A stretch of 17,062 nt of DNA from a virus: the UHGV virus genome UHGV-0205375. One strand, 5' to 3'. The notes under the pieces are model-generated. The model was not told the DNA's origin. It did no database searches and saw only the letters and a list, made by a program, of their open reading frames with translations. The translations under genes and the position numbers were made by a program. Within the stretch, counting starts at the first letter, position 1, and every line of letters begins with the position of its first letter. Shown here one piece after another: positions 2,133 through 15,635 of the stretch.

Positions 2133-3177
2133 ATTTCAGCGCCCGACGCTGGCAGAAAATATCAGTATGCTCCGTAACGATTTATTCGCCAGGCTGGACG
2201 TCAGCGACACGCTCCGGCGCATGGATGAAGACGTGCGGGCAAAGGTGTATGCGGCGGCGCTGCATACGGTTTACGGTTACATCGATTATCTGGCAATGAA
2301 CATGCTGCCTGACCTGTGCGATGAGTCCTGGCTGGCGCGACATGCTGCGATGAAACAGTGTCCGCGCAAGGGGGCCACGGCTGCCAGCGGGTATATGCGC
2401 TGGGAAGGTGTCAGCGATGGCCTGAAGGTGACCGCCGGGAGTGTTATTCAGCGCGATGACCTGGTTCAGTACACGGCAACTGCCGATGCAACCAGCTCCG
2501 GTGGTGTCCTGCGCGTGCCGATCGCCTGCTCAAATGCAGGCGCGGTCGGTAACGCTGACGACGGTACGGCATTAATCCTGGTCACGCCGGTGAATGGTCT
2601 GCCGTCTTCCGGTGTGGCTGACACCCTGACAGGCGGATTTGATACTGAAGAGCTGGAAACGTGGCGCGCCCGCGTCATTGAGCGGTATTACTGGACGCCG
2701 CAGGGCGGGGCTGACGGGGACTATGTCGTCTGGGCTAAAGAAGTGCCCGGCATTACCCGCGCATGGACATACCGTCACTGGATGGGAACGGGAACTGTCG
2801 GTGTGATGATTGCCAGCAGTGACCTGATTAATCCCATTCCGGAAGAATCAACGGAAACGGCGGCAAGACAACATATCGAACCACTGGCCCCGGTGGCAGG
2901 CTCTGATTTGTATGTGTTCAGGCCGGTGGCACATACGGTGGATTTTCATATCCGCGTGACGCCGGACACACCGGAAATACGGGCTGCCATCACCGCGGAG
3001 TTGCGTTCGTTCCTGCTGCGTGATGGTTATCCGCAGGGAGAACTGAAGGTATCGCGTATCAGTGAGGCGATTTCCGGTGCGAACGGGGAATACAGCCATC
3101 AGTTGCTTGCACCGGCAGACAATATCTCCATTGCGAAAAACGAACTGGCGGTACTGGGGACGATTTCATGGACGTGA
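2119..3177 (+). CDS. Baseplate J-like protein (Mu gp47-like)
   Basis: 352-aa ORF overlapping its neighbours by a few codons. Size and position are typical of baseplate J. Confidence 0.8.
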
Positions 3178-3752
3178 CAAACGATGATTACATCCGTCTG
3201 TTGTCGGCACTGTTGCCCCCCGGTCCGGCGTGGTCAGCCGGCGATCCGGCGATTGCCGGTGCGGCACCGTCATTAACCCGCGTTCATCAGCGTGCGGATG
3301 CCCTGATGCGGGAGCTTGATCCGCGCACCACCACCGAGCTGATAAATCGCTGGGAGCGTCTGTGTGGCCTGCCGGATGAATGTATTCCCGCAGGGACACA
3401 GACCCTTCGCCAGCGTCAGCAACGGCTGGATGCGAAGGTTAACCTGACGGGTGGCATCAACGAGGATTTTTATCTTGCACAGCTTGCTGCCCTGGGCAGA
3501 CCAGACGCCACCATCACGCGATACGACAAAAGCACGTTCACCTGCTCATCGGCCTGTACTGACGCGGTGAATGCGCCGGAATGGCGGTATTACTGGCAGG
3601 TCAACATGCCAGCCGCCACCAACACCACCTGGATGACATGTGGCGATCCCTGTGATTCCGCGCTGCGCTTCTGGGGGGACACCGTTGTCGAGTGTGTTCT
3701 TAACAAACTCTGCCCGTCGCATACCTATGTGATTTTTAAATATCCGGAGTAA
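3168..3752 (+). CDS. Tail protein, DUF2313 family (Mu gp48 / YmfQ-like)
   Basis: 194-aa ORF immediately upstream of the tail fibre gene, overlapping the J gene stop. Confidence 0.7.
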
Positions 3753-3755
3753 TCC

Positions 3756-4421
3756 ATGCATCGTATAGACACGAAAACCGCGCAGAAGGATAAGTTCGGC
3801 GCGGGTAAGAACGGTTTTACCCGTGGTAACCCCCAGACCGGCACGCCTGCCACCGATCTGGATGATGACTACTTTGACATGTTGCAGGAGGAGCTTTGCA
3901 GCGTTGTGGAGGCATCCGGTGCCAGCCTGGAGAAGGGGCGGCATGACCAGCTGCTTACCGCGCTTCGTGCGCTGCTGTTAAGCCGCAAGAATCCGTTTGG
4001 TGATATCAAATCGGATGGCACGGTGAAAACGGCTCTCGAAAACCTTGGTTTGGGAGAAGCGGCAAAACTTGGCGCTGCTGTAGGGGTAACGGGTAATACC
4101 GGGAGAATATTGATCCCGGCTTTAATTGGTGGGGTTGAACAAAATATCATTTTCCAGTGGGTCTCTGGATTTCTTTCCGATTCGACTGGAGTAGCAACCG
4201 TGACATTACCTATGGCATTTCCTAACGCTCTGTTTCATGCCACTGCGATTGACTCAGGTGCTTCTGCTAGCTCGTGGAATGGATCGGCCGGCACAACGTG
4301 GGGCTTCGATATTGGTGGCTCTACCAGAACGACAGTCAAAGTTCGTGTTTTAAGAACAACTAATGGGACTTCATGGGCGGGTGCTTCAGCTGCCGGTTGT
4401 TTATTCGCAATAGGTTATTAA
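3756..4421 (+). CDS. Tail fibre protein; constant N-terminal part (Sc) fused to the currently expressed variable C-terminal part (Sv)
   Basis: 221-aa ORF with GGAG 7 nt upstream. N-terminus [40 protein letters not shown] is the conserved e14/Mu-type fibre N-terminus. The inversion crossover site lies inside this gene at 4033-4058. Confidence 0.8.
4033..4058. repeat. Left recombination site of the invertible segment (hix/gix-like, 26 bp, core TT at 4045-4046)
   Basis: CTCTCGAAAACC TT GGTTTGGGAGAA; its reverse complement TTCTCCCAAACC AA GGTTTTCGAGAG resembles the hix/gix sites as recalled. A 24-bp perfect inverted repeat (4045-4068) pairs with 5625-5648. Confidence 0.65.
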
Positions 4422-4422
4422 C

Positions 4423-4839
4423 ATGAAAACAAGATACTTTTATGACGCCGTTGATAACGGATTTTATATTGAACCTGAAAGCAGGTTTATTCCTGAATCA
4501 GCTATTGAAATCAGTGTTAACCTCTACAACCAATTTGCTGGTATTGCCTGGCCTGAAGGTAAAATGCTTGGTGCAGATAGCACTGGACTGCCCGCATGGG
4601 TCGATGCGCCGCCTCCAACGCATGAAGAGCAAATAGCGGCGGCAGAACAATATCGCCAGCAACGGCTACAGCAGATTGACGAAGTAACCGCCGACTGGCG
4701 GGTTGAATTAATGCTCGGCGATATAAGTGACGAGGATAAAGCGAAATTGTCTGAGTGGATGGCGCATAAAAAAGCGGTGAAAGCCGTCGATACGTCAACG
4801 GCCCCTAATGTCATCTGGCCTGAACAGCCGGAGGCGTAG
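4423..4839 (+). CDS. Tail fibre assembly protein (Tfa family)
   Basis: 138-aa ORF directly after the fibre gene. The motif LPAWVDAPPPTHEEQIAAAE is shared with the opposite-strand paralogue (LPAWADIPPPTHEELIEITE). Confidence 0.8.
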   Translation: MKTRYFYDAVDNGFYIEPESRFIPESAIEISVNLYNQFAGIAWPEGKMLGADSTGLPAWVDAPPPTHEEQIAAAEQYRQQRLQQIDEVTADWRVELMLGDISDEDKAKLSEWMAHKKAVKAVDTSTAPNVIWPEQPEA

Positions 4840-5254
4840 GCCATTCAATATCTGGCGCACCGGAAGTATCAACCAGTTCCAGTGCGTCCAGATAATCCAG
4901 CCACAAATTATATTGCGCCAGTTCGTCACCTTTCAGACGACCAATAGCGGCTTTACCGGGCCATTGTTTACTGTTCATGTATTCGTTGGCCTGGTTAATT
5001 AGTAACTGTCTTTCTGATTCAGTAATTTCAATAAGCTCTTCATGCGTGGGTGGAGGAATATCAGCCCACGCAGGCAGCGCATCATCTCCGGCAATACGGA
5101 CTTTTCCTTGTGGCGGTTCAGCCATAAACTCACTGACAATATTTTGATTCACTTCTTTCACATCTGATAAATCCCATCCCTCTGATTTATATTTATCAAT
5201 CATATCCACAGGGAAAAAAGCATTATGTCTGGCACTATAAACATATTTGTTCAT
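4811..5254 (-). CDS. Alternative tail fibre assembly protein (Tfa'), in the inverted orientation
   Basis: Start moved to the internal ATG at 5252-5254 (MNKYVYSARH...), preceded by an AGGGTG SD-like sequence; 147 aa. Carries the Tfa motif and overlaps the 3' end of tfa by 29 bp, as in e14 and Mu G segments. Confidence 0.75.
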   Translation of the reverse strand: MNKYVYSARHNAFFPVDMIDKYKSEGWDLSDVKEVNQNIVSEFMAEPPQGKVRIAGDDALPAWADIPPPTHEELIEITESERQLLINQANEYMNSKQWPGKAAIGRLKGDELAQYNLWLDYLDALELVDTSGAPDIEWPTPPAVQAR

Positions 5255-5274
5255 ATAAATCACCCTGAATAAAA

Positions 5275-5643
5275 TTACTCGCCAACAGCCCACCAACAGT
5301 AATTCATGGTAACAGTTGGACTTGTCGAGGTTGTTCTAAAGGCAGAATAAAACCCTGTTAACCCTGTCTCTTCAGTTGTCATCATAAAACCACGACCACT
5401 CCCGGCAGTTGAACCACCATCACCAGAATGTGAAAGCAAGGCAATATCAGCTTTTTTAGGGAAAGGTATATTAAATTCTACCCGTAGTGTCTGACTCGCA
5501 AGCGTAGGAGACACACGCCCACGACCATATTGCAGGATTTTCCCGTTGGGTAATTTCATCCATCCATCACCACTGGCAAAAGAGGCCATGTCCGGTATCT
5601 GATTTTCCCCTGTCCCCACATCCCGTTTTGCCGCTTCTCCCAA
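5275..5643 (-). CDS. Alternative tail fibre variable C-terminal cassette (Sv'), promoterless until inversion
   Basis: 122-aa open frame whose 5' end (GEAAK...) begins inside the right crossover site and mirrors the ...LGLGEAAK junction of the expressed fibre gene. Inversion would fuse it to the constant part of 3756-4421. Confidence 0.65.
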   Translation of the reverse strand: MGEAAKRDVGTGENQIPDMASFASGDGWMKLPNGKILQYGRGRVSPTLASQTLRVEFNIPFPKKADIALLSHSGDGGSTAGSGRGFMMTTEETGLTGFYSAFRTTSTSPTVTMNYCWWAVGE

Positions 5644-5660
5644 ACCAACCTTTCAAATAT
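5635..5660. repeat. Right recombination site of the invertible segment (core AA at 5647-5648)
   Basis: TTCTCCCAAACC AA CCTTTCAAATAT. The inner half-site plus core is identical to the reverse complement of the left site; it lies 60 bp upstream of the invertase start. Confidence 0.65.
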
Positions 5661-5719
5661 TTTTCTGAATCAGGTGATATTTCGCCTCTTCTCCTGTTTT
5701 TACAACAGGAGAAGCACTC

Positions 5720-6283
5720 ATGATTTACGGGTATGTTCGTGTATCAACAAATCATCAGGATACAGAGTTGCAACGTCTTGCACTTGAGTCAGCTGGCTGT
5801 GAGCGAATTTATGAAGAATATGCCAGTGGCAGAACAGCTAATCGCCCTGTGTTAAAGGAATTAATTACGGTGATGAAAAGTGGAGATGAGTTGATTGTCT
5901 GGAAGTTAGATCGGATAGGGAGAAATGTGCTGCATGCGCTATTGATGTTTCAAAATCTGCACGAAAAAGGTGTTAATTTTCGGAGTATTACAGATGGCGT
6001 AGACCTGAAAACAGCAAGTGGTCGCTATAATTTCCGTAATATTCTTTCTGCTGCGCAGTATGAATCTGATTTGAATAGCGAGCGAACTTTAGCTGGTTTG
6101 GCTATTGCCAGATCCAAAGGCCGGATTGGTGGGCGTAGACCGAAGTTTAGCGACGAGCAGTGGCAACAGATGGGAGCGCTCATAGCGGCAGGGAAATCAC
6201 GGCGTTATGTTGCACGTATCTATAACGTTGGGCTATCAACCCTATATAAACGATTTCCTGTTACTGGCATTCAAACGAAATAA
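5720..6283 (+). CDS. pin: Serine DNA invertase, Pin/Gin/Hin family
   Basis: 187 aa with AGGAG 8 nt upstream. N-terminal YGYVRVSTNHQ (catalytic Ser), WKLDRIGRN, GRIGGRRPKF and a C-terminal HTH (VGLSTLYKRF) follow the Gin/Pin pattern, and the gene abuts the invertible segment. Confidence 0.9.
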   Translation: MIYGYVRVSTNHQDTELQRLALESAGCERIYEEYASGRTANRPVLKELITVMKSGDELIVWKLDRIGRNVLHALLMFQNLHEKGVNFRSITDGVDLKTASGRYNFRNILSAAQYESDLNSERTLAGLAIARSKGRIGGRRPKFSDEQWQQMGALIAAGKSRRYVARIYNVGLSTLYKRFPVTGIQTK

Positions 6284-6587: not shown

Positions 6588-7226
6588 ATGAAGATGAAAA
6601 ACATGTCTGAAGTGTTGACCCAAGAAAAGCTTATTTTTGTTGCCCAGAGACTAAAGGCCCTCGCGCAGTCAGGCCTGACCTATTCAAAAGACGTCTTTGA
6701 CAAGGAACGCTATGAAGCCTTGCGTGAAATTGCCGCTGGACTGCTGAGTTCGCAGTTTGATATTAGCCGCAATGATTTGTTTCATGTATCGGAAACGGGT
6801 TACGCGACGCCCAAAACAGATGTGCGTGCGTTTATCCTGCGTAATAATCGTATTCTGATGGTGAAAGAGGCTGCAGATGGATTATGGAGTCTTCCTGGCG
6901 GATGGGCAGATGTTGGAGATACACCTTCTGAAGCTGTGCGTCGAGAGGTCGAAGAAGAAACCGGATTAAAAGTCAGAGTGACTAAACTATTGGGAGTTTG
7001 GGATCGTAATCTTCACGGCCATCCGCCTTTACCCTGGCATGTTTACAAGCTGATTTTTCTCTGTGAAGAAGTAGGTGGCAGCCTGTCAATCAGCCATGAG
7101 TCACTCGATGCTGATTTTTTTGATGTCAACGACCTGCCTGAATTGTCGCTTTCAAGAATTGTGCCTGAGCAGATTGCTGTCAGCCTGAGAGTAGCGAAAG
7201 GTGATGAAAAAACATGGTTTGATTAA
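6588..7226 (+). CDS. NUDIX hydrolase with an N-terminal helical domain
   Basis: 212-aa ORF with a Nudix box GGWADVGDTPSEAVRREVEEETGL (G-x5-E-x7-REVxEExGL). The start is ambiguous among ATGs at 6588, 6594 and 6603; substrate unknown. Confidence 0.75.
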   Translation: MKMKNMSEVLTQEKLIFVAQRLKALAQSGLTYSKDVFDKERYEALREIAAGLLSSQFDISRNDLFHVSETGYATPKTDVRAFILRNNRILMVKEAADGLWSLPGGWADVGDTPSEAVRREVEEETGLKVRVTKLLGVWDRNLHGHPPLPWHVYKLIFLCEEVGGSLSISHESLDADFFDVNDLPELSLSRIVPEQIAVSLRVAKGDEKTWFD

Positions 7227-7255
7227 CTTTCTTCTGCAACCATTAAGGAATGGCA

Positions 7256-7894
7256 ATGATATTCAACGCTAAGGGTTTTTTATTCGATATGGACGGTACG
7301 CTGGTTGATTCAACAGCCGTAGTGGAAAGCGTCTGGAGAGATTTTTGTGCAGAATACGGTCTTGATTCTCAGGCTGTGATTGCTTACGCACACGGGCGGC
7401 AAACGATTGATACACTAACGCATTTTATTGGTGCAGGTGAGAAAACCAATAAAATCGCGGCCTCACTCGAAGAGGTTGAAATCAACACGACAGAAGGCGT
7501 TACTGAAGTAAAAGGGGCCGCTGCACTCTTATCAAAACTGCCACCGGATAGCTGGGCACTTGTCACTTCTGCAGGCAGAATGCTTGCCGAAAACAGGATG
7601 AAAGCGGCTAATCTCCCCTTACCCAGAGTAATGGTGTGTGCAGAAGATGTAATGACGGGAAAACCAAGTCCCGAGGGTTACATCAAAGCAGCTTTGGCTT
7701 TGGGCCTTGAGCCTGGTGAATGCGTGGTATTTGAGGATGCATCTGCGGGTATAAAAGCAGGGCTGGCAAGTGGAGCTTCGGTAATAGCTGTTCAGCCTGA
7801 CGCTCTGGGAGCATCTGAAGCCCATGCCGTCAGCGAACTGTCTGACATTATGGTCAAGATTTCCGGAGAACGTTTCAATATCATCTGTGGTTAA
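7256..7894 (+). CDS. HAD-IA family phosphatase (beta-phosphoglucomutase-like sugar-phosphatase fold)
   Basis: HAD motif I FDMDGTLVDS at the N-terminus and an acidic motif (VVFEDASAG) near the C-terminus. Start placed at the second ATG (7256) because AAGGA at 7244-7248 is then 7 nt upstream; the ORF track starts at 7250. It lies 23-29 bp after the NUDIX gene, so probably co-transcribed. Confidence 0.8.
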   Translation: MIFNAKGFLFDMDGTLVDSTAVVESVWRDFCAEYGLDSQAVIAYAHGRQTIDTLTHFIGAGEKTNKIAASLEEVEINTTEGVTEVKGAAALLSKLPPDSWALVTSAGRMLAENRMKAANLPLPRVMVCAEDVMTGKPSPEGYIKAALALGLEPGECVVFEDASAGIKAGLASGASVIAVQPDALGASEAHAVSELSDIMVKISGERFNIICG

Positions 7895-8286: not shown

Positions 8287-9450
8287 TTACACATCATTAG
8301 TACCTTCCTTATTTTTTGACTGGGACAAATTTGGGACCGATGGGTTCAGGATCGAGTCTATTTGCCGTGCGTGTTCGGTAAGGTGATTAGGTGCAAGGTG
8401 AGCATATCGACGAACCATTTCGATAGACTCCCAGCCTCCCATTTCCTGTAACACTGACAACGGGACTCCGGCTTGAACCAGCCAACTTGCCCAGGTGTGT
8501 CTCAAGTCGTGAAATCTGAAATCATCAATACCAGCCCGTCTCAGCGCCGCTTTCCAGGCTGTGTTTGCGTCATACCGCATCTTCCTGACTGTTGGCGCTT
8601 TCGTTCCGTCTGGTTTGGTACAGCTTTCCTTGTACACAAATACCCAACGGTGATGATTCCCGATTTGTTTTTTCAATACGCGACATGCAGTATCATTCAG
8701 CGCAACGCCAATTGCGCGGTTTGATTTACTCTCTTCCGGGTTTATCCATGCCACCCGGCGCTGCATATCTATTTGTTGCCATTCAAGGTTGATGATGTTC
8801 GAGCGTCTTAGGCCTGTTGCCAGTGCAAATTCAACAACAGACTTTAATGGCTCCGGACATTCATCAATCAGCCTTTGTGCTTCATGGGGCTCCAGCCAGC
8901 GGATCCGTTTATTCTTTGGTTGGGGCACTTTAATAATTGGTGCCTTATCCAGCATTTTCCATTCACGCTCTGCGGCTCTTAGTAGGGCCTTTATAAATGA
9001 AAGATGCGTAGCCTTCGTTGCAACGGACGCTGGTTTTGGCGTGTATTCTGGAACAGGTTTCCCTTTTTTTCTGCATGCTTCTGCCCTGAGTTTCCAGTTT
9101 TCCTCATGACGCCGGTTCGTCATTTTCTGCATTGCTGAATAAATTTTTGATTCAGTAATGTCTCTTAGTTGCATTCCTGCGAAATGTTGAAGCCAGAATC
9201 CGATCCGGCTTTTGTCATCGTCCAGTGATTTTTTATGTGCTTTCTCTTCAAGCCACCTGACACACGCTTCCTCGAACGTTATATCAGGTATTTCACCAAG
9301 TTTGCTGACCCGCCATGCTTCAGCCTTTAGCTTGTCATGGAGTTCTGTCGCCTGCCTTTTGTCCTTTGTTCCAAGAGACTGTTTAAATCTTTTACCGTTC
9401 GGCAATGTGAAACTGGCGTACCATATTTCACCTCTGCGGAAGAGTGACAT
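8287..9450 (-). CDS. int: Tyrosine integrase, lambdoid/P22-like
   Basis: 387 aa with C-terminal catalytic region [16 protein letters not shown]...MVRRYAHL (H-x-x-R and Tyr). The 3' end abuts the tRNA-Thr fragment; P22-type integrases are known to use thrW. Confidence 0.9.
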
Positions 9451-12719: not shown

Positions 12720-13154
12720 ATGTCCGGTAATATCTATACGCTGTACAAATCCCACTGTGAAAATGTTGGAAAGTATCGGGGCATTGAAATCAGTGGGGTA
12801 GTGTCATCAGTCGAAATAAGCAAAGTTGAATCAAGGGCAACATTACTTACTCTTTTGGACCTTGTCTTACATGAGCACCGGAAGAAATTCGGCACTCCCT
12901 ATAATCAGTTGAATGGGAAAAAGGCTCTGGTTCACCTTATTCTGATGAAGCATCACTGGATGCCAAAACAGATTAATGAGATGAAATTTGATGAACTTCT
13001 TCTTTCAATTCAGGATGAACTCACACTTGATAAAATAAGCGTAACCGCCCAGAAATTTTTAGATTATCGAGACTGGAGATCACAAATTCATCACTTTGAT
13101 GATTTTGACGAAAATGAATGGGATCCTAATTTGTCTGCACAATATCTAAAGTAA
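12720..13154 (+). CDS. Hypothetical protein (144 aa), orphan gene oriented against the leftward early operon
   Basis: ATG at 12720 with AAGGA 6 nt upstream. Preceded by two direct repeats GTTAT(T)CCCCAACAAC (12656-12671, 12690-12704). The 3' end overlaps the convergent 68-aa gene by 29 bp. No recognisable family. Confidence 0.55.
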   Translation: MSGNIYTLYKSHCENVGKYRGIEISGVVSSVEISKVESRATLLTLLDLVLHEHRKKFGTPYNQLNGKKALVHLILMKHHWMPKQINEMKFDELLLSIQDELTLDKISVTAQKFLDYRDWRSQIHHFDDFDENEWDPNLSAQYLK

Positions 13155-13332
13155 CATCCTGTGATAAAACCGTGATTTCCTGATCCAGTTTTTTTAAGGA
13201 GTCTATTGTTTCCTGTCGATAAGACAGCACTTCACGAAGCTGGTTTATAGCTGCCAGCTTCTTTGTCATCCACTCATAAATTTCCTCATCTGTGTAGCCA
13301 GGCGCGACGATTTTGGGTTCTGTTTTGTGCAT
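13126..13332 (-). CDS. Hypothetical protein (68 aa), first gene downstream of the putative pL
   Basis: Start taken at the ATG at 13330-13332, preceded by GAGGAGA 7 nt upstream; the track's TTG start at 13347 lies inside that RBS. No Arg-rich N-terminus, so not obviously an N-type antiterminator. Confidence 0.5.
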   Translation of the reverse strand: MHKTEPKIVAPGYTDEEIYEWMTKKLAAINQLREVLSYRQETIDSLKKLDQEITVLSQDVTLDIVQTN

Positions 13333-13496
13333 TTCACATCTCCTCAAGTTATCAGTTACTTGTTGATGGGGACCAGATTGTTAAAGAGCTAAGCGTCCTG
13401 TAGGGCGCTTTTTTGTTGCTAACGAATCATCCTGGACTTCATATGCCCCAGGCGGCTACTTCGTGGGCGTCCTGCCTGTTCGTTGTCGGTAAAATG

Positions 13497-13538
13497 ATAT
13501 TGCTACTTAAAGTTGCAAAAATCAACTACAAAAAGTAG
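13497..13538 (-). promoter_or_regulatory. Putative OL/pL: two 13-bp operator sites (CTAC-N5-GTAG type) interleaved with -35 TTGATT and -10 CAATAT on the minus strand
   Basis: Minus-strand reading is CTACTTTTTGTAG - TTGATT - 17-bp spacer containing CAACTTTAAGTAG - CAATAT. Same architecture and 23-bp operator spacing as the OR/pR region at 15303-15344. Confidence 0.5.
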
Positions 13539-13844
13539 AAGTTAAGGGCATAAAAACGCATTTTGAAATTAATTCATTGAATTTACAGGTAAAATATTTT
13601 GGGGGCTATGATCAAAAAATTATATTGTGAAGTTAGCTGAGTTGTAGAACGTGATGGATTGTTTCATTGTGGCTGAGATCAGTATGTGATCTAGTTAATC
13701 ATCAAGTGGGGAGAAGTCAATCATGAGAGTATTGTTGAGTTTTTGGAGACTAAGTGTAAAACGGTAGGGAATTTACTACTCAATGGATTGTGTGATTTAG
13801 CCTCGATAGTAAGAAAACTAGGGCAGGTCATAGTCAAAAACTTA

Positions 13845-14129
13845 TCAAAACATAAATTTGGCGAGACCTAAAATCGCCAAGCCTGTTGCAACAGTCCATG
13901 CGATCTGTTTATTTACGGCTGATGAAATAGCGCTGTTGACTTCACTTAGGCTAGGTTTTTTTGACAACTTTTCATCTATATCTATTTGTTTTTGAAGGAT
14001 AACAGCGACATCGCGTCGGGTGTCGGAGAGAGCGTTTCGCAAATCACGAATGTCAGCTCTCATCTCTGCGAGATTTGTTTTTATATCCTCAACATTCGCT
14101 TCTAACTTAGCGACTCGGGCTTCAAGCAT
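13845..14129 (-). CDS. Small coiled-coil protein with C-terminal transmembrane anchor (XhlA-like architecture)
   Basis: Start taken at the ATG at 14127-14129, preceded by GGAGGTG 6 nt upstream; 94 aa. MLEARVAKLEANVEDIKTNLAEMRADIRDLRNALSDTRRDV is coiled-coil-like and the C-terminus IAWTVATGLAILGLAKFMF is hydrophobic. The track's longer ORF would overlap the upstream gene by 56 nt. Confidence 0.55.
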   Translation of the reverse strand: MLEARVAKLEANVEDIKTNLAEMRADIRDLRNALSDTRRDVAVILQKQIDIDEKLSKKPSLSEVNSAISSAVNKQIAWTVATGLAILGLAKFMF

Positions 14130-14196
14130 GTCATCACCTCCGCCATCTCCACCGTGTCTTCTAATTGTGGGAAGTTCACTATTAAATGGTACTACA

Positions 14197-14544
14197 TTAT
14201 TTTGCGGCGTCGGCATTTTTTTCATCTTCCGTTTTTGCTGGGAACTTTTCATTTACCCAGTTCAAAACTGAAAACGCATTTATATGAATTTCATTTCCAC
14301 AATTGTTGCATATTAGTGAAAAGTAATACTGGTTAGCAGTATCAGAATAAATGCTTTTTTCAGTAAAAACATTCACATAACTACCAAGTTTCATAGTACA
14401 TGGCATGCCCACATTCGCGCTGACTTGAGGCACAGTCAATCTGTCGTGTCCACATAGTGTACATTTTAGATATATATTCTTTTCTGAGAAATAAGAGACC
14501 AACATATCCATGTTAATCTTTTCGAATCCCTGCTCACTAGCCAT
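14197..14544 (-). CDS. Zinc-ribbon-type protein (115 aa), unknown function
   Basis: Two CxxC pairs (CTLCGH and CNNCGN) about 50 residues apart. Starts 15 bp downstream of the cI stop on the same strand, so probably co-transcribed with the repressor. Confidence 0.55.
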   Translation of the reverse strand: MASEQGFEKINMDMLVSYFSEKNIYLKCTLCGHDRLTVPQVSANVGMPCTMKLGSYVNVFTEKSIYSDTANQYYFSLICNNCGNEIHINAFSVLNWVNEKFPAKTEDEKNADAAK

Positions 14545-14559
14545 TATATGCCCTTAGAA

Positions 14560-15300
14560 CTATAACCGATTGTATTTTATTGACTCATGAATCAACGCCT
14601 TGCCCATTACATAAAGCTGATCCTGCGATTTTTCATCGATGTACCATTTCTCATAGGCAGGGTTATCCGAAAGAACGGCTAGCTTGTCACCTTGCATTTG
14701 AAGACGTTTAACATGAAAAGTCTTACCGTAAACGAAAGAGTAAATTCCATCAGTCTGGAAGTGACGAACAGAAATGTCGACAAACAGTCGATCTCCGGAA
14801 ACGAGAGTAGGGGACATACTATCGCCATTTACAGTCATAACCTTAATATCATCCTGAGAACGGTTACCGAAAAGAGAACGGGCATGTTCTGTTGTGAACT
14901 CAATGGCGTAGAGCACATCAACATAGTCTGAAAGCATATAGGTTCCAGGTCCTGCGCTAACGCTAAGATCTAAAACTTCTATCCTGTATACGTCGGGTTT
15001 AGTTGGATTGGGGATGCTTGCCATTTCCTTACATCCTTCTCTCTCGCCAACACCATATTCTAAATATGAAGCCGATACCCCCAGAGCCAACGCAAGTTTA
15101 TTCATGACAGAGGCACGAGGCTTCGCTGCGCCGATTGTGTATCGCCGCGCCATTTCATATGTAACGCCAACAAGACTTTTGAGTTGGGTGACAGAAATTC
15201 CCTTGTTTGTCATTAACTCGTTTAGTCTCTTGGCGAAATCTGGATACTTCTGTTCTTCTACCATAGGTAGAAGATTACTCACATCACATACGCTCGTCAT
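14560..15300 (-). CDS. cI: CI-type prophage repressor (HTH plus LexA/S24 peptidase domain)
   Basis: HTH region ISVTQLKSLVGVTYEMARRY and an S24 autoprotease domain with GDSMSPTL (Ser) and HVKRL (Lys). The track start at 15321 would place the operators inside the CDS; start set to the ATG at 15298-15300 (possible leaderless mRNA), with the ATG at 15262-15264 as an alternative. Confidence 0.85.
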   Translation of the reverse strand: MTSVCDVSNLLPMVEEQKYPDFAKRLNELMTNKGISVTQLKSLVGVTYEMARRYTIGAAKPRASVMNKLALALGVSASYLEYGVGEREGCKEMASIPNPTKPDVYRIEVLDLSVSAGPGTYMLSDYVDVLYAIEFTTEHARSLFGNRSQDDIKVMTVNGDSMSPTLVSGDRLFVDISVRHFQTDGIYSFVYGKTFHVKRLQMQGDKLAVLSDNPAYEKWYIDEKSQDQLYVMGKALIHESIKYNRL

Positions 15301-15302
15301 TT

Positions 15303-15344
15303 CTATTTTAAGTAGTTGCAATTCGCTACTTTAAGTAGCATTAT
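15303..15344. promoter_or_regulatory. Putative OR with divergent promoters: operators CTATTTTAAGTAG (15303-15315) and CTACTTTAAGTAG (15326-15338); pR -35 TTGCAA (15316-15321) and -10 CATTAT (15339-15344)
   Basis: Two near-palindromic 13-bp sites spaced 23 bp centre to centre between divergent cI and cro. The pR spacer is 17 bp, and the cro AGGAG RBS follows at 15361-15365. Confidence 0.55.
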
Positions 15345-15371
15345 CCCCTCTGGATTTCAGAGGAGAAAGAT

Positions 15372-15635
15372 ATGTCATCTCAAAACTACACCGAGAAAGC
15401 AGTAAAGGCTGCGGGAAAGTCTTTATCTGAAGTAGCTCGTCGCTTTGGTTTTAAATCTACTCAATCTGTCGCTAATTGGGTAATTAACAATCAAGTCCCG
15501 TCGGAACGAGTTTTACAACTTTGTGAGCTGGGGAACTGGTCCGTAACCCCCCATGAGCTGCGTCCTGATATTTATCCAAATCCAAATGATGGATTACCAG
15601 AGTGCTATTCAAAAGTTAGCGGTTCAGTTGCGTAA
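15372..15635 (+). CDS. Cro-like HTH regulator (YdaS-like)
   Basis: 87 aa, divergent from cI, AGGAG 6 nt upstream. The segment STQSVANWVINNQVPSERVLQLCELGNWSVTPHELRPDIY resembles YdaS/Cro-type proteins as recalled. Confidence 0.7.
   Translation: MSSQNYTEKAVKAAGKSLSEVARRFGFKSTQSVANWVINNQVPSERVLQLCELGNWSVTPHELRPDIYPNPNDGLPECYSKVSGSVA

Follow-up and report, generated by a model that had tools for sequence, protein, structure and literature searches.

In a 17,062-nucleotide (nt) stretch of the virus genome UHGV-0205375 (the window), two small genes, open reading frame 1 (ORF1) and ORF2, lie on the repressor strand between the cI-type repressor gene and the operator region OL. This two-gene cassette is best explained as a lysogen-expressed accessory module that would provide prophage-encoded phage exclusion through a membrane effector, a reading in which our confidence is evenly balanced. 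It is suggested by the position of the cassette, its mobility across phage backbones and the diversification of its presumed specificity part against a constant core, and also by the absence of enzymatic domains and the presence of a membrane anchor.

A preliminary description of the window, made from its sequence, had placed the two genes between cI and OL, the position that lambda uses for rexA and rexB, and this placement was upheld. Both are real ORFs, annotated in RefSeq in 17 near-identical Escherichia coli prophages, and the distance from the cI stop (14560) to the ORF1 ATG (14544) is 15 nt, as described. OL, which had been put at 13497-13538, contains two 13-bp palindromes, CTACTTAAAGTTG at 13503-13515 and CTACAAAAAGTAG at 13526-13538. 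These match the pair at OR, CTATTTTAAGTAG at 15303-15315 and CTACTTTAAGTAG at 15326-15338, and the operator spacing is 23 bp in both pairs. The two regions form a 57-nt inverted repeat (13496-13552 versus 15289-15345, 75% complementary) that encloses both operator pairs. No terminator-like site was seen on the minus strand from cI to OL, and promoter-like matches on that strand in the same interval were at chance level (5 versus 6.0 expected). With a 15-nt gap and no terminator found, the simplest reading is that cI, ORF1 and ORF2 are co-transcribed, and the cassette is probably expressed together with the repressor.

The cI-to-N interval is a known hotspot, transcribed with the repressor, that contains the abortive-infection systems rexAB and bstA (PMC8585504), in agreement with the earlier view of this slot as a site for cargo. 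What stands behind a prophage repressor, as rexAB and bstA do, is expressed in every lysogen and shapes which phages infect it. The assignment to the rex slot was borne out by relatives of the cassette. HK544 has a lambda-like cI, PRM, PR and PL, and a related cassette (HK544_041/040) replaces rexAB exactly in the rexA-rexB position. In Sp15/VT1-Sakai the order is ECs2990 (cI), ECs2991 and ECs2992 ("putative membrane protein"); ECs2991, the partner in this related Shiga toxin 1 prophage cassette, is listed in an O157:H7 proteome (PMC3936929), which gives indirect evidence of expression from a relative. Among 40 distinct same-strand neighbors immediately upstream, repressor-type domains prevailed: HTH_3 in 24, Peptidase_S24 in 14, Phage_CI_repr in 10 and the Arc/Mnt type in 3. 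Repressors of at least five types directly precede the cassette in Serratia, Pectobacterium, Klebsiella and Enterobacter, and two loci (L026 and L027) have an identical cassette behind unrelated repressors.

Other slots are occupied as well. In the P22-like phage UPF_BP1, the cassette overlaps the mnt stop and lies between mnt and gene 16; in P22 itself, sieA adjoins mnt and was cloned jointly with orf59a and mnt. A Hafnia cassette is found at a prophage end, beside tail-fiber genes. In siphoviruses of the S107/SPN3UB type, it precedes the tape-measure gene, with an Arc/antirepressor block on one side and lipoprotein morons on the other. The link to immunity regions made in the preliminary description therefore holds in part: the pair does occur before a tape-measure gene, at a locus that is again immunity-related because it contains Arc-like and antirepressor genes. 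The wider family was found in Escherichia, Salmonella, Klebsiella, Enterobacter, Citrobacter, Kluyvera, Serratia, Pectobacterium, Brenneria, Yersinia, Hafnia and Edwardsiella.

Comparison of the cI-to-OL interval between related prophages, which had been proposed as a way of looking for cargo turnover, revealed such turnover. E. coli ZYS9073 and 20AR1039 have the same or a 96%-matching cI and window-like flanks, and the segment 13540-14560 is replaced by another pair, made of a zinc-ribbon protein and a protein with an N-terminal tail (N-tail), GG, Met, a coiled coil and a transmembrane (TM) helix. In the ZYS9073 locus (L108), a sister of the window prophage with an identical cI protein, homology with the window resumes at 13539. 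As judged from these alignments, variants of one design replace each other as cargo, exactly at the cI-stop and OL boundaries. The L108 pair (2464-3455 of that locus), in the same slot as window positions 13540-14560, consists of a zinc-ribbon partner of 120 amino acids (aa) and an effector of 210 aa. In this effector, a YLRAV-type N-tail is followed by GG-K-M, a different coiled coil, a TM helix and, past the TM helix, a Pro/Gln-rich tail of about 40 aa. The same YLRAV tail accompanies the same partner subtype in Klebsiella quasipneumoniae (L024).

The two proteins and a probable nested start in ORF2

In the first protein, C28, C31, C79, C82 and W96 are invariant in 31 sequences that are 20 to 87% identical to ORF1. 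The CxxC...CxxC zinc ribbon noted earlier is thus more than a chance motif, since the four cysteines are invariant across 31 relatives. The AlphaFold2 model of ORF1 was confident (predicted local distance difference test [pLDDT], 81.7; predicted template modeling score [pTM], 0.71), and in it the two conserved CxxC knuckles appear joined in a beta-ribbon, the arrangement of a zinc ribbon. No hydrophobic segment was seen. ORF1 is predicted to be a cytoplasmic zinc-ribbon protein whose fold elaboration is otherwise undescribed, and we presume that it is the specificity subunit of the cassette. It belongs to phrog_4293 (5e-31; annotated as of unknown function), and against Pfam, NCBIfam and PADLOC every family fell below threshold. 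The ORF1 family is small: a word-indexed search gave 4 relatives, and an exhaustive profile search gave 30 representatives in 1.84 billion proteins.

The second protein matches phrog_3556 (also annotated as of unknown function) at 1.5e-47 over residues 9 to 135 of a 135-aa frame, and this match reaches upstream of the ORF2 start used in the preliminary description. Besides the start assigned by the Prokaryotic Genome Annotation Pipeline (PGAP), alternative starts are found at 14216 (MPTP, as in the Serratia and Pectobacterium homologues) and 14252, and ORF2 overlaps the 3' end of ORF1 by at least 29 nt. In the AlphaFold2 model, residues 1 to 27 are disordered and a helix from 31 to 88 is followed by a break at KKPS and a second helix from 93 to 125. 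Heptad a/d positions are hydrophobic in 14 of 17 cases, and the sole Kyte-Doolittle window above 1.6 corresponds to the last 19 residues. The protein thus runs from a disordered N-tail through a Gly-rich linker and a long coiled coil to a TM helix at its very C terminus, which agrees with the coiled coil and C-terminal anchor described earlier. Because its lone hydrophobic window forms its last 19 residues, ORF2 is predicted to be a tail-anchored inner-membrane protein; from the topology so deduced, the cytoplasm is the presumed location of the coiled coil. ORF2 fits no Pfam, NCBIfam or PADLOC family, and PDB-sequence profile searches with both proteins returned only leucine zippers and Fur-type CxxC motifs. 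Scans of Pfam, PHROG, NCBIfam and PADLOC were thus in line with the earlier impression of a soluble-plus-membrane layout from no described family.

The label "XhlA-like", which the preliminary description had given to ORF2, did not stand beyond architectural resemblance, as match scores were below threshold. It bears on an alternative in which the cassette is a device of the phage's own life cycle, modulating the lysis-lysogeny switch or induction or assisting lysis as XhlA would. RexA is said to modulate the switch or induction, and an immunity-operon position would suit such a role. The XhlA-type resemblance points the same way; it is weak, with PHROG "hemolysin" families at E values of 0.004 to 0.006, no match of ORF2 to Pfam XhlA at E values up to 1, and a match at 3.4e-4 in 1 of 20 relatives. 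However, the near-identical prophage of E. coli GB089 (L001) encodes its holin, endolysin and spanin in the late region, far from the cassette. The cassette is also dispensable and exchangeable behind an identical cI and moves between unrelated phage backbones and slots. We consider a life-cycle role improbable, slightly more so than the entry-block and toxin-antitoxin readings below.

A second alternative is classical superinfection exclusion, in which ORF2 would block DNA entry at the inner membrane in the manner of P22 SieA or HK97 gp15, without cell death or sensing. A related cassette fills the post-mnt interval, the place of sieA in P22, and the predicted product is likewise an inner-membrane protein from a maintenance operon. 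Nevertheless, the window protein ends with its TM helix and exposes nothing to the periplasm, and an entry block leaves the cytoplasmic zinc-ribbon partner and the long cytoplasmic coiled coil unexplained. PHROG matches at E values up to 0.1 included no superinfection-exclusion family. This explanation is unlikely in our view.

Next to the coiled coil, the relatives of ORF2 share a second feature. After a variable N-tail and a Gly-rich run, they continue with M-L-E-A-R-V-A-K-L-E, and GGAGG is found upstream of this internal Met in 33 of 38 distinct relatives, at a distance of 7 nt in 27. The GGAGGTG motif that the preliminary description had taken for the ribosome-binding site at the ORF2 start is accordingly a conserved Shine-Dalgarno motif; the start assigned to it did not hold, since the motif is internal, the PGAP start is at 14225 and the frame is open upstream. 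At -12, the codon used for Gly is GGA in 29 of 37 sequences, compared with 19 of 95 codons at -24 to -15 (Fisher P = 7e-10). The internal Met is nearly invariant (GTG replaces it in L026, and L108 has GGGGG in place of GGAGG). GGAGG and ATG are also kept where the coiled coil and TM helix are no longer alignable, in SPN3UB, ST101-KPC2phi6.1, ENT1 and HK544.

The upstream part of the frame is maintained too. In the window it is open for 32 to 41 codons before the internal ATG (14129), into the end of ORF1. In all 55 of the cassettes compared, the in-frame stretch upstream stayed open over 24 codons or more (median, 42); the same was true of 31% of control frames (median, 11). The frame of ORF2-type genes begins at or over the partner stop codon, and N-tail motifs such as DNVVPF are conserved past the overlap with ORF1. 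As GGAGG and an in-frame ATG are kept through position-specific choice of Gly codons, gene 2 most likely makes two nested products, a long one of about 123 to 126 aa and a short one of 94 aa. Public entries for ORF2 relatives begin at the internal Met in many cases (94 to 98 aa) and upstream in others (120 to 153 aa); the entries with split annotation are P0023, P0034, P0037, P0038 and P0041. Such a split would fit a competition between two initiation signals. We also considered, and rejected, a programmed frameshift that would fuse ORF1 to ORF2 (+1 frame), as the gap between the two genes varies from -56 to +20 nt in relatives.

Exchangeable partners and possible functions

A scan of viral contigs gave 100 loci, and the best 80 were kept. 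At 83 of 85 loci, a small co-oriented gene precedes the ORF2-type gene. The partners in 56 distinct cassettes fell into proteins of 136 to 187 aa without cysteines (30 cassettes), zinc-ribbon proteins (19), proteins of about 94 aa (4) and singletons, including that of HK544; representatives of the non-zinc-ribbon partners had no Pfam or PADLOC match. All the zinc-ribbon homologues inspected (in S107, SPN3UB, ST101-KPC2phi6.1, ENT1, Serratia, Pectobacterium, K. quasipneumoniae and E. coli ZYS9073) are followed by a protein with an N-tail, polyGly, Met, a coiled coil and a TM helix. The zinc-ribbon protein is one of several interchangeable partners, which, like the conserved nested start, the preliminary description had missed.

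Partners are exchanged between closely related effectors. In 47 of 99 pairs whose effector cores are at least 75% identical, the partner classes differ. The clearest boundary comes from an Enterobacter locus (L110), whose effector (P0008) is 91% identical to window ORF2 across the core. DNA homology between the two extends from 14146, 17 nt before the internal ATG, to the stop codon, and neither the partner nor the N-tail has any similarity. N-tail similarity is higher inside a partner class than between classes (median, 19% versus 14%), a modest difference drawn from non-independent pairs. Partner and N-tail thus travel as one exchangeable unit, joined at the Gly linker to a common core, and because they are swapped together, the partner may bind the N-tail. 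An E. coli protein of 134 aa (P0042) is a natural in-frame fusion of the ~94-aa partner, class C, to the effector core through a shared DVENIK. This junction implies that the beginning of the effector coiled coil is present as a short copy in the ~94-aa partner itself. The fusion may have arisen by an accident of recombination, or it may point to helix mimicry.

A constant core behind exchangeable upstream partners recalls the mix-and-match of toxin-antitoxin (TA) families. The cassette could be a TA-like addiction or stabilization module, with a tail-anchored membrane toxin, an upstream proteinaceous antitoxin docked on the N-tail and prophage maintenance as its main role; such a role and one in defense are not mutually exclusive. 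Many type II pairs have a similar gene order and size, and the small genes overlap or abut within the range of gaps given above. On the other side, no DNA-binding antitoxin domain was recognized in any partner class, and the strong preference for a place downstream of a repressor and the exact exchange of one variant for another are more suggestive of arms-race cargo than of addiction. We hold the TA-like reading to be as doubtful as the entry block.

The absence of known domains and the rarity of the window's variant in E. coli might also suggest that the two ORFs merely hitch-hike, with no selected function. Yet the cysteines are invariant across relatives of 20 to 87% identity, the architecture is kept in 56 distinct cassettes from at least 10 genera, codon choice is position specific and the reading frames are maintained. 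On these conservation grounds, hitch-hiking is very unlikely, and we give it almost no weight.

If the cassette is an exclusion module, it might work as follows. The long and short isoforms of ORF2 would co-assemble via the coiled coil, and the partner would dock on the N-tail of the long isoform and set specificity. On sensing an infection cue, the partner would change the oligomeric state, which would lead either to perturbation of the inner membrane, as in Rex-like abortive infection, or to a block of the incoming phage. The ratio of long to short isoforms may provide restraint or self-immunity by gating the oligomeric membrane perturbation. Restraint of this type has been proposed for RexA:RexB stoichiometry and has been shown in holin/antiholin pairs.

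Several points weigh against an exclusion module of this design. Homology to PADLOC 2.0, Pfam or NCBIfam families was not found for the cassette proteins, so that the putative function is assigned through guilt by position and architecture. Internal initiation is deduced from sequence conservation, and binding of the partner to the N-tail from co-inheritance only, with a modest N-tail difference between classes. Almost none of the effector is periplasmic, and it lacks an enzymatic domain. The variant in the window is rare, being present in 17 of 5,426 complete E. coli genomes. Finally, the S107/SPN3UB-type pair shares its orientation with antirepressor and tail genes and may not be expressed in lysogens.

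More tentatively, a little short of even confidence, the cassettes may represent previously undescribed immune modules that are widespread in Enterobacterales prophages, with a universal tail-anchored coiled-coil effector, translated as two nested isoforms by way of a conserved internal ribosome-binding site, and small interchangeable sensors (zinc ribbon and other folds), each with a docking tail of its own on the effector; they would be among the commonest cargos of the rex slot and would also occupy the sieA slot. Should the exclusion function be true, the cassette would add a new membrane-effector family to bacterial immunity and offer a compact model (about 240 aa in total) of the coupling of a sensor to a membrane effector. 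It would also account for part of the unexplained phage resistance in enterobacterial lysogens, among them carriers of Shiga-toxin prophages and Klebsiella or Salmonella strains that are targets of phage therapy.

Other features of the window

The window is the genome of a temperate enterobacterial phage, with myovirus baseplate and tail-fiber genes and an invertase. The integrase gene (8287-9450) is followed by an early-left operon of the yfdP/Q/R type and then by a lambdoid-style immunity region. Starting at about 8.2 kb, the window is 97 to 99.8% identical to the tRNA-Thr prophage of E. coli GB089. The cI frame is open up to a TTG at 15321, and the PGAP start is at 15264; cro (15372-15635) faces cI, and a CII-like ymfL gene comes next. 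The coordinates of the cassette and its surroundings are collected in Table 1.

Table 1. Coordinates of the cassette, its parts and the flanking immunity features in the window
Feature	Positions	Strand	Basis
OL/pL region with two operators (13503-13515, 13526-13538)	13496..13552	.	Inverted repeat with OR
Noncoding spacer, 292 bp, travels with the cassette	13553..13844	-	Inside the swapped segment 13540-14560
ORF2, long form, 126 aa (PGAP start)	13845..14225	-	phrog_3556 match; RefSeq; open upstream frame
ORF2, putative short form, 94 aa (coiled coil and TM helix), ATG 14129-14127	13845..14129	-	Near-invariant Met
Predicted C-terminal transmembrane anchor IAWTVATGLAILGLAKFMF	13848..13904	-	Hydrophobicity; helix 93-125; nothing after the anchor
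Predicted coiled-coil helix, residues 31-88 of the 126-aa form	13962..14135	-	AlphaFold2 pLDDT 80-92; heptads
Internal Shine-Dalgarno motif GGAGGT in the Gly-rich linker	14136..14141	-	6 nt ahead of the internal ATG; GGAGG core 7 nt
ORF1, partner, predicted 115-aa cytoplasmic zinc-ribbon protein	14197..14544	-	Real ORF; RefSeq-annotated in relatives
cI-type repressor	14560..15264	-	Pfam Peptidase_S24 8.4e-17, HTH_3 2e-5; PHROG 4 transcriptional repressor 3e-50; RefSeq annotation
OR, two 13-bp palindromic operators between cI and cro	15303..15338	.	Repeat search

The spacer between ORF2 and OL is kept in near-identical prophages only; it gave no Rfam match, and its promoter and terminator signals were not above chance. 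Beyond OL, on the minus strand, a stem-loop (13410-13391) is followed directly by an rrn-type boxA-like sequence, GCTCTTTAACAA (13389-13378), some 100 nt downstream of pL/OL. The two elements (13378-13410) are probably an antitermination site similar to nutL; no Rfam match was obtained for them. Positions ~13400-13490 are the sole part of 13400-15400 in common with SfII, SfIV, SfV and ST64B-type phages (83 to 100% identity), where they are unannotated. On the plus strand, the hairpin at 13391-13410 with its T-run scores as a terminator for a convergent, phage-associated gene of the ECs1072 family (12720-13154; NCBIfam, 1.7e-46), which overlaps by 29 nt the minus-strand ORF at 13126-13347. The latter, a member of phrog_1744 (annotated as of unknown function), is the first minus-strand ORF past pL. 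No N-like antiterminator gene was recognized at the pL-proximal position.

Farther away, an invertible tail-fiber segment (3756-6283) has a tail-fiber gene (3756-4421) facing inverted tail-fiber-assembly ORFs (4811-5296, minus strand) and adjoins a DNA invertase gene of the Hin/Gin type (5720-6283). Between this gene and the integrase gene lies a pair encoding a NUDIX hydrolase-like protein (6588-7226) and a HAD-superfamily hydrolase (7250-7894), a second accessory (moron) slot (6588-7894) at the attP-proximal end.

Comparison with known systems

The closest parallel in position is lambda RexA/RexB, which is likewise encoded between cI and OL on the cI strand, is co-transcribed with the repressor and has one soluble and one inner-membrane component. 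The differences are substantial: Pfam, PHROG and PADLOC scans gave no Rex family for the cassette; ORF2, with its long coiled coil and one TM helix at the C terminus, differs from the polytopic ion channel that RexB is described to be; RexA, which binds DNA, is much larger than the 115-aa ORF1; and, unlike in Rex, the cassette partner is interchangeable between unrelated families. The proposed control of Rex by stoichiometry (PMC8585504) parallels the idea of long and short isoforms in the cassette.

P22 SieA resembles the cassette in its place next to mnt, its inner-membrane product and its maintenance operon; it is a single gene, whereas the cassette has two genes and a cytoplasmic bulk. The PHROG scan, at the same E value limit as above and with no direct pairwise comparison, gave no homology to SieA, SieB or HK97 gp15. 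In P22 SieB/Esc and lambda S107/S105, an in-frame internal start yields a shorter membrane protein nested in a longer one. As may be the case for ORF2, the shorter form could modulate the longer one; both pairs are unrelated in sequence and topology to ORF2, whose predicted forms differ by a tail of 30 to 40 aa and a Gly linker. XhlA (PF10779, the PBSX "hemolysin") is, like ORF2, a small phage-borne protein that is anchored by a C-terminal TM segment and has a cytoplasmic helix or coiled coil at its N terminus. However, it is found in lysis cassettes, whereas the ORF2-type gene, with an upstream partner that is obligatory, occupies slots for immunity or moron genes.

Type II TA systems share with the cassette two small overlapping genes, an exchangeable upstream component and a constant downstream one. 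The cassette differs from them in having neither a DNA-binding antitoxin domain nor a known toxin fold, and its effector is a tail-anchored coiled coil. In the pair of the mycobacteriophage Butters, one member is reportedly cytoplasmic and the other membrane-bound, and gp31 is said to have several TM helices. This prophage-expressed pair, gp30/gp31, defends against heterotypic phages (PMC7542560). Its host phylum and sequences are unrelated to those of the cassette, and neither a dual start nor partner swapping is known for it.

A search of PADLOC-DB 2.0 (2023) with both proteins and the alternative partners gave coiled-coil noise only (LmuB, JetC and PbeC, 12 to 19 bits). The cassette accessions and motif were not found in the accessible portion of the DefensePredictor paper text and supplements, and literature matches to the locus tags, accessions and PHROG identifiers were confined to a comparative genomic hybridization table and a proteome list. 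Tai systems (tail-assembly inhibition, PMC11364771) were considered and rejected, HK544 being merely a target phage there. The cassette is best regarded as a candidate repressor-linked prophage exclusion cargo, drawn from undescribed protein families and with an unusual modular, dual-start design.

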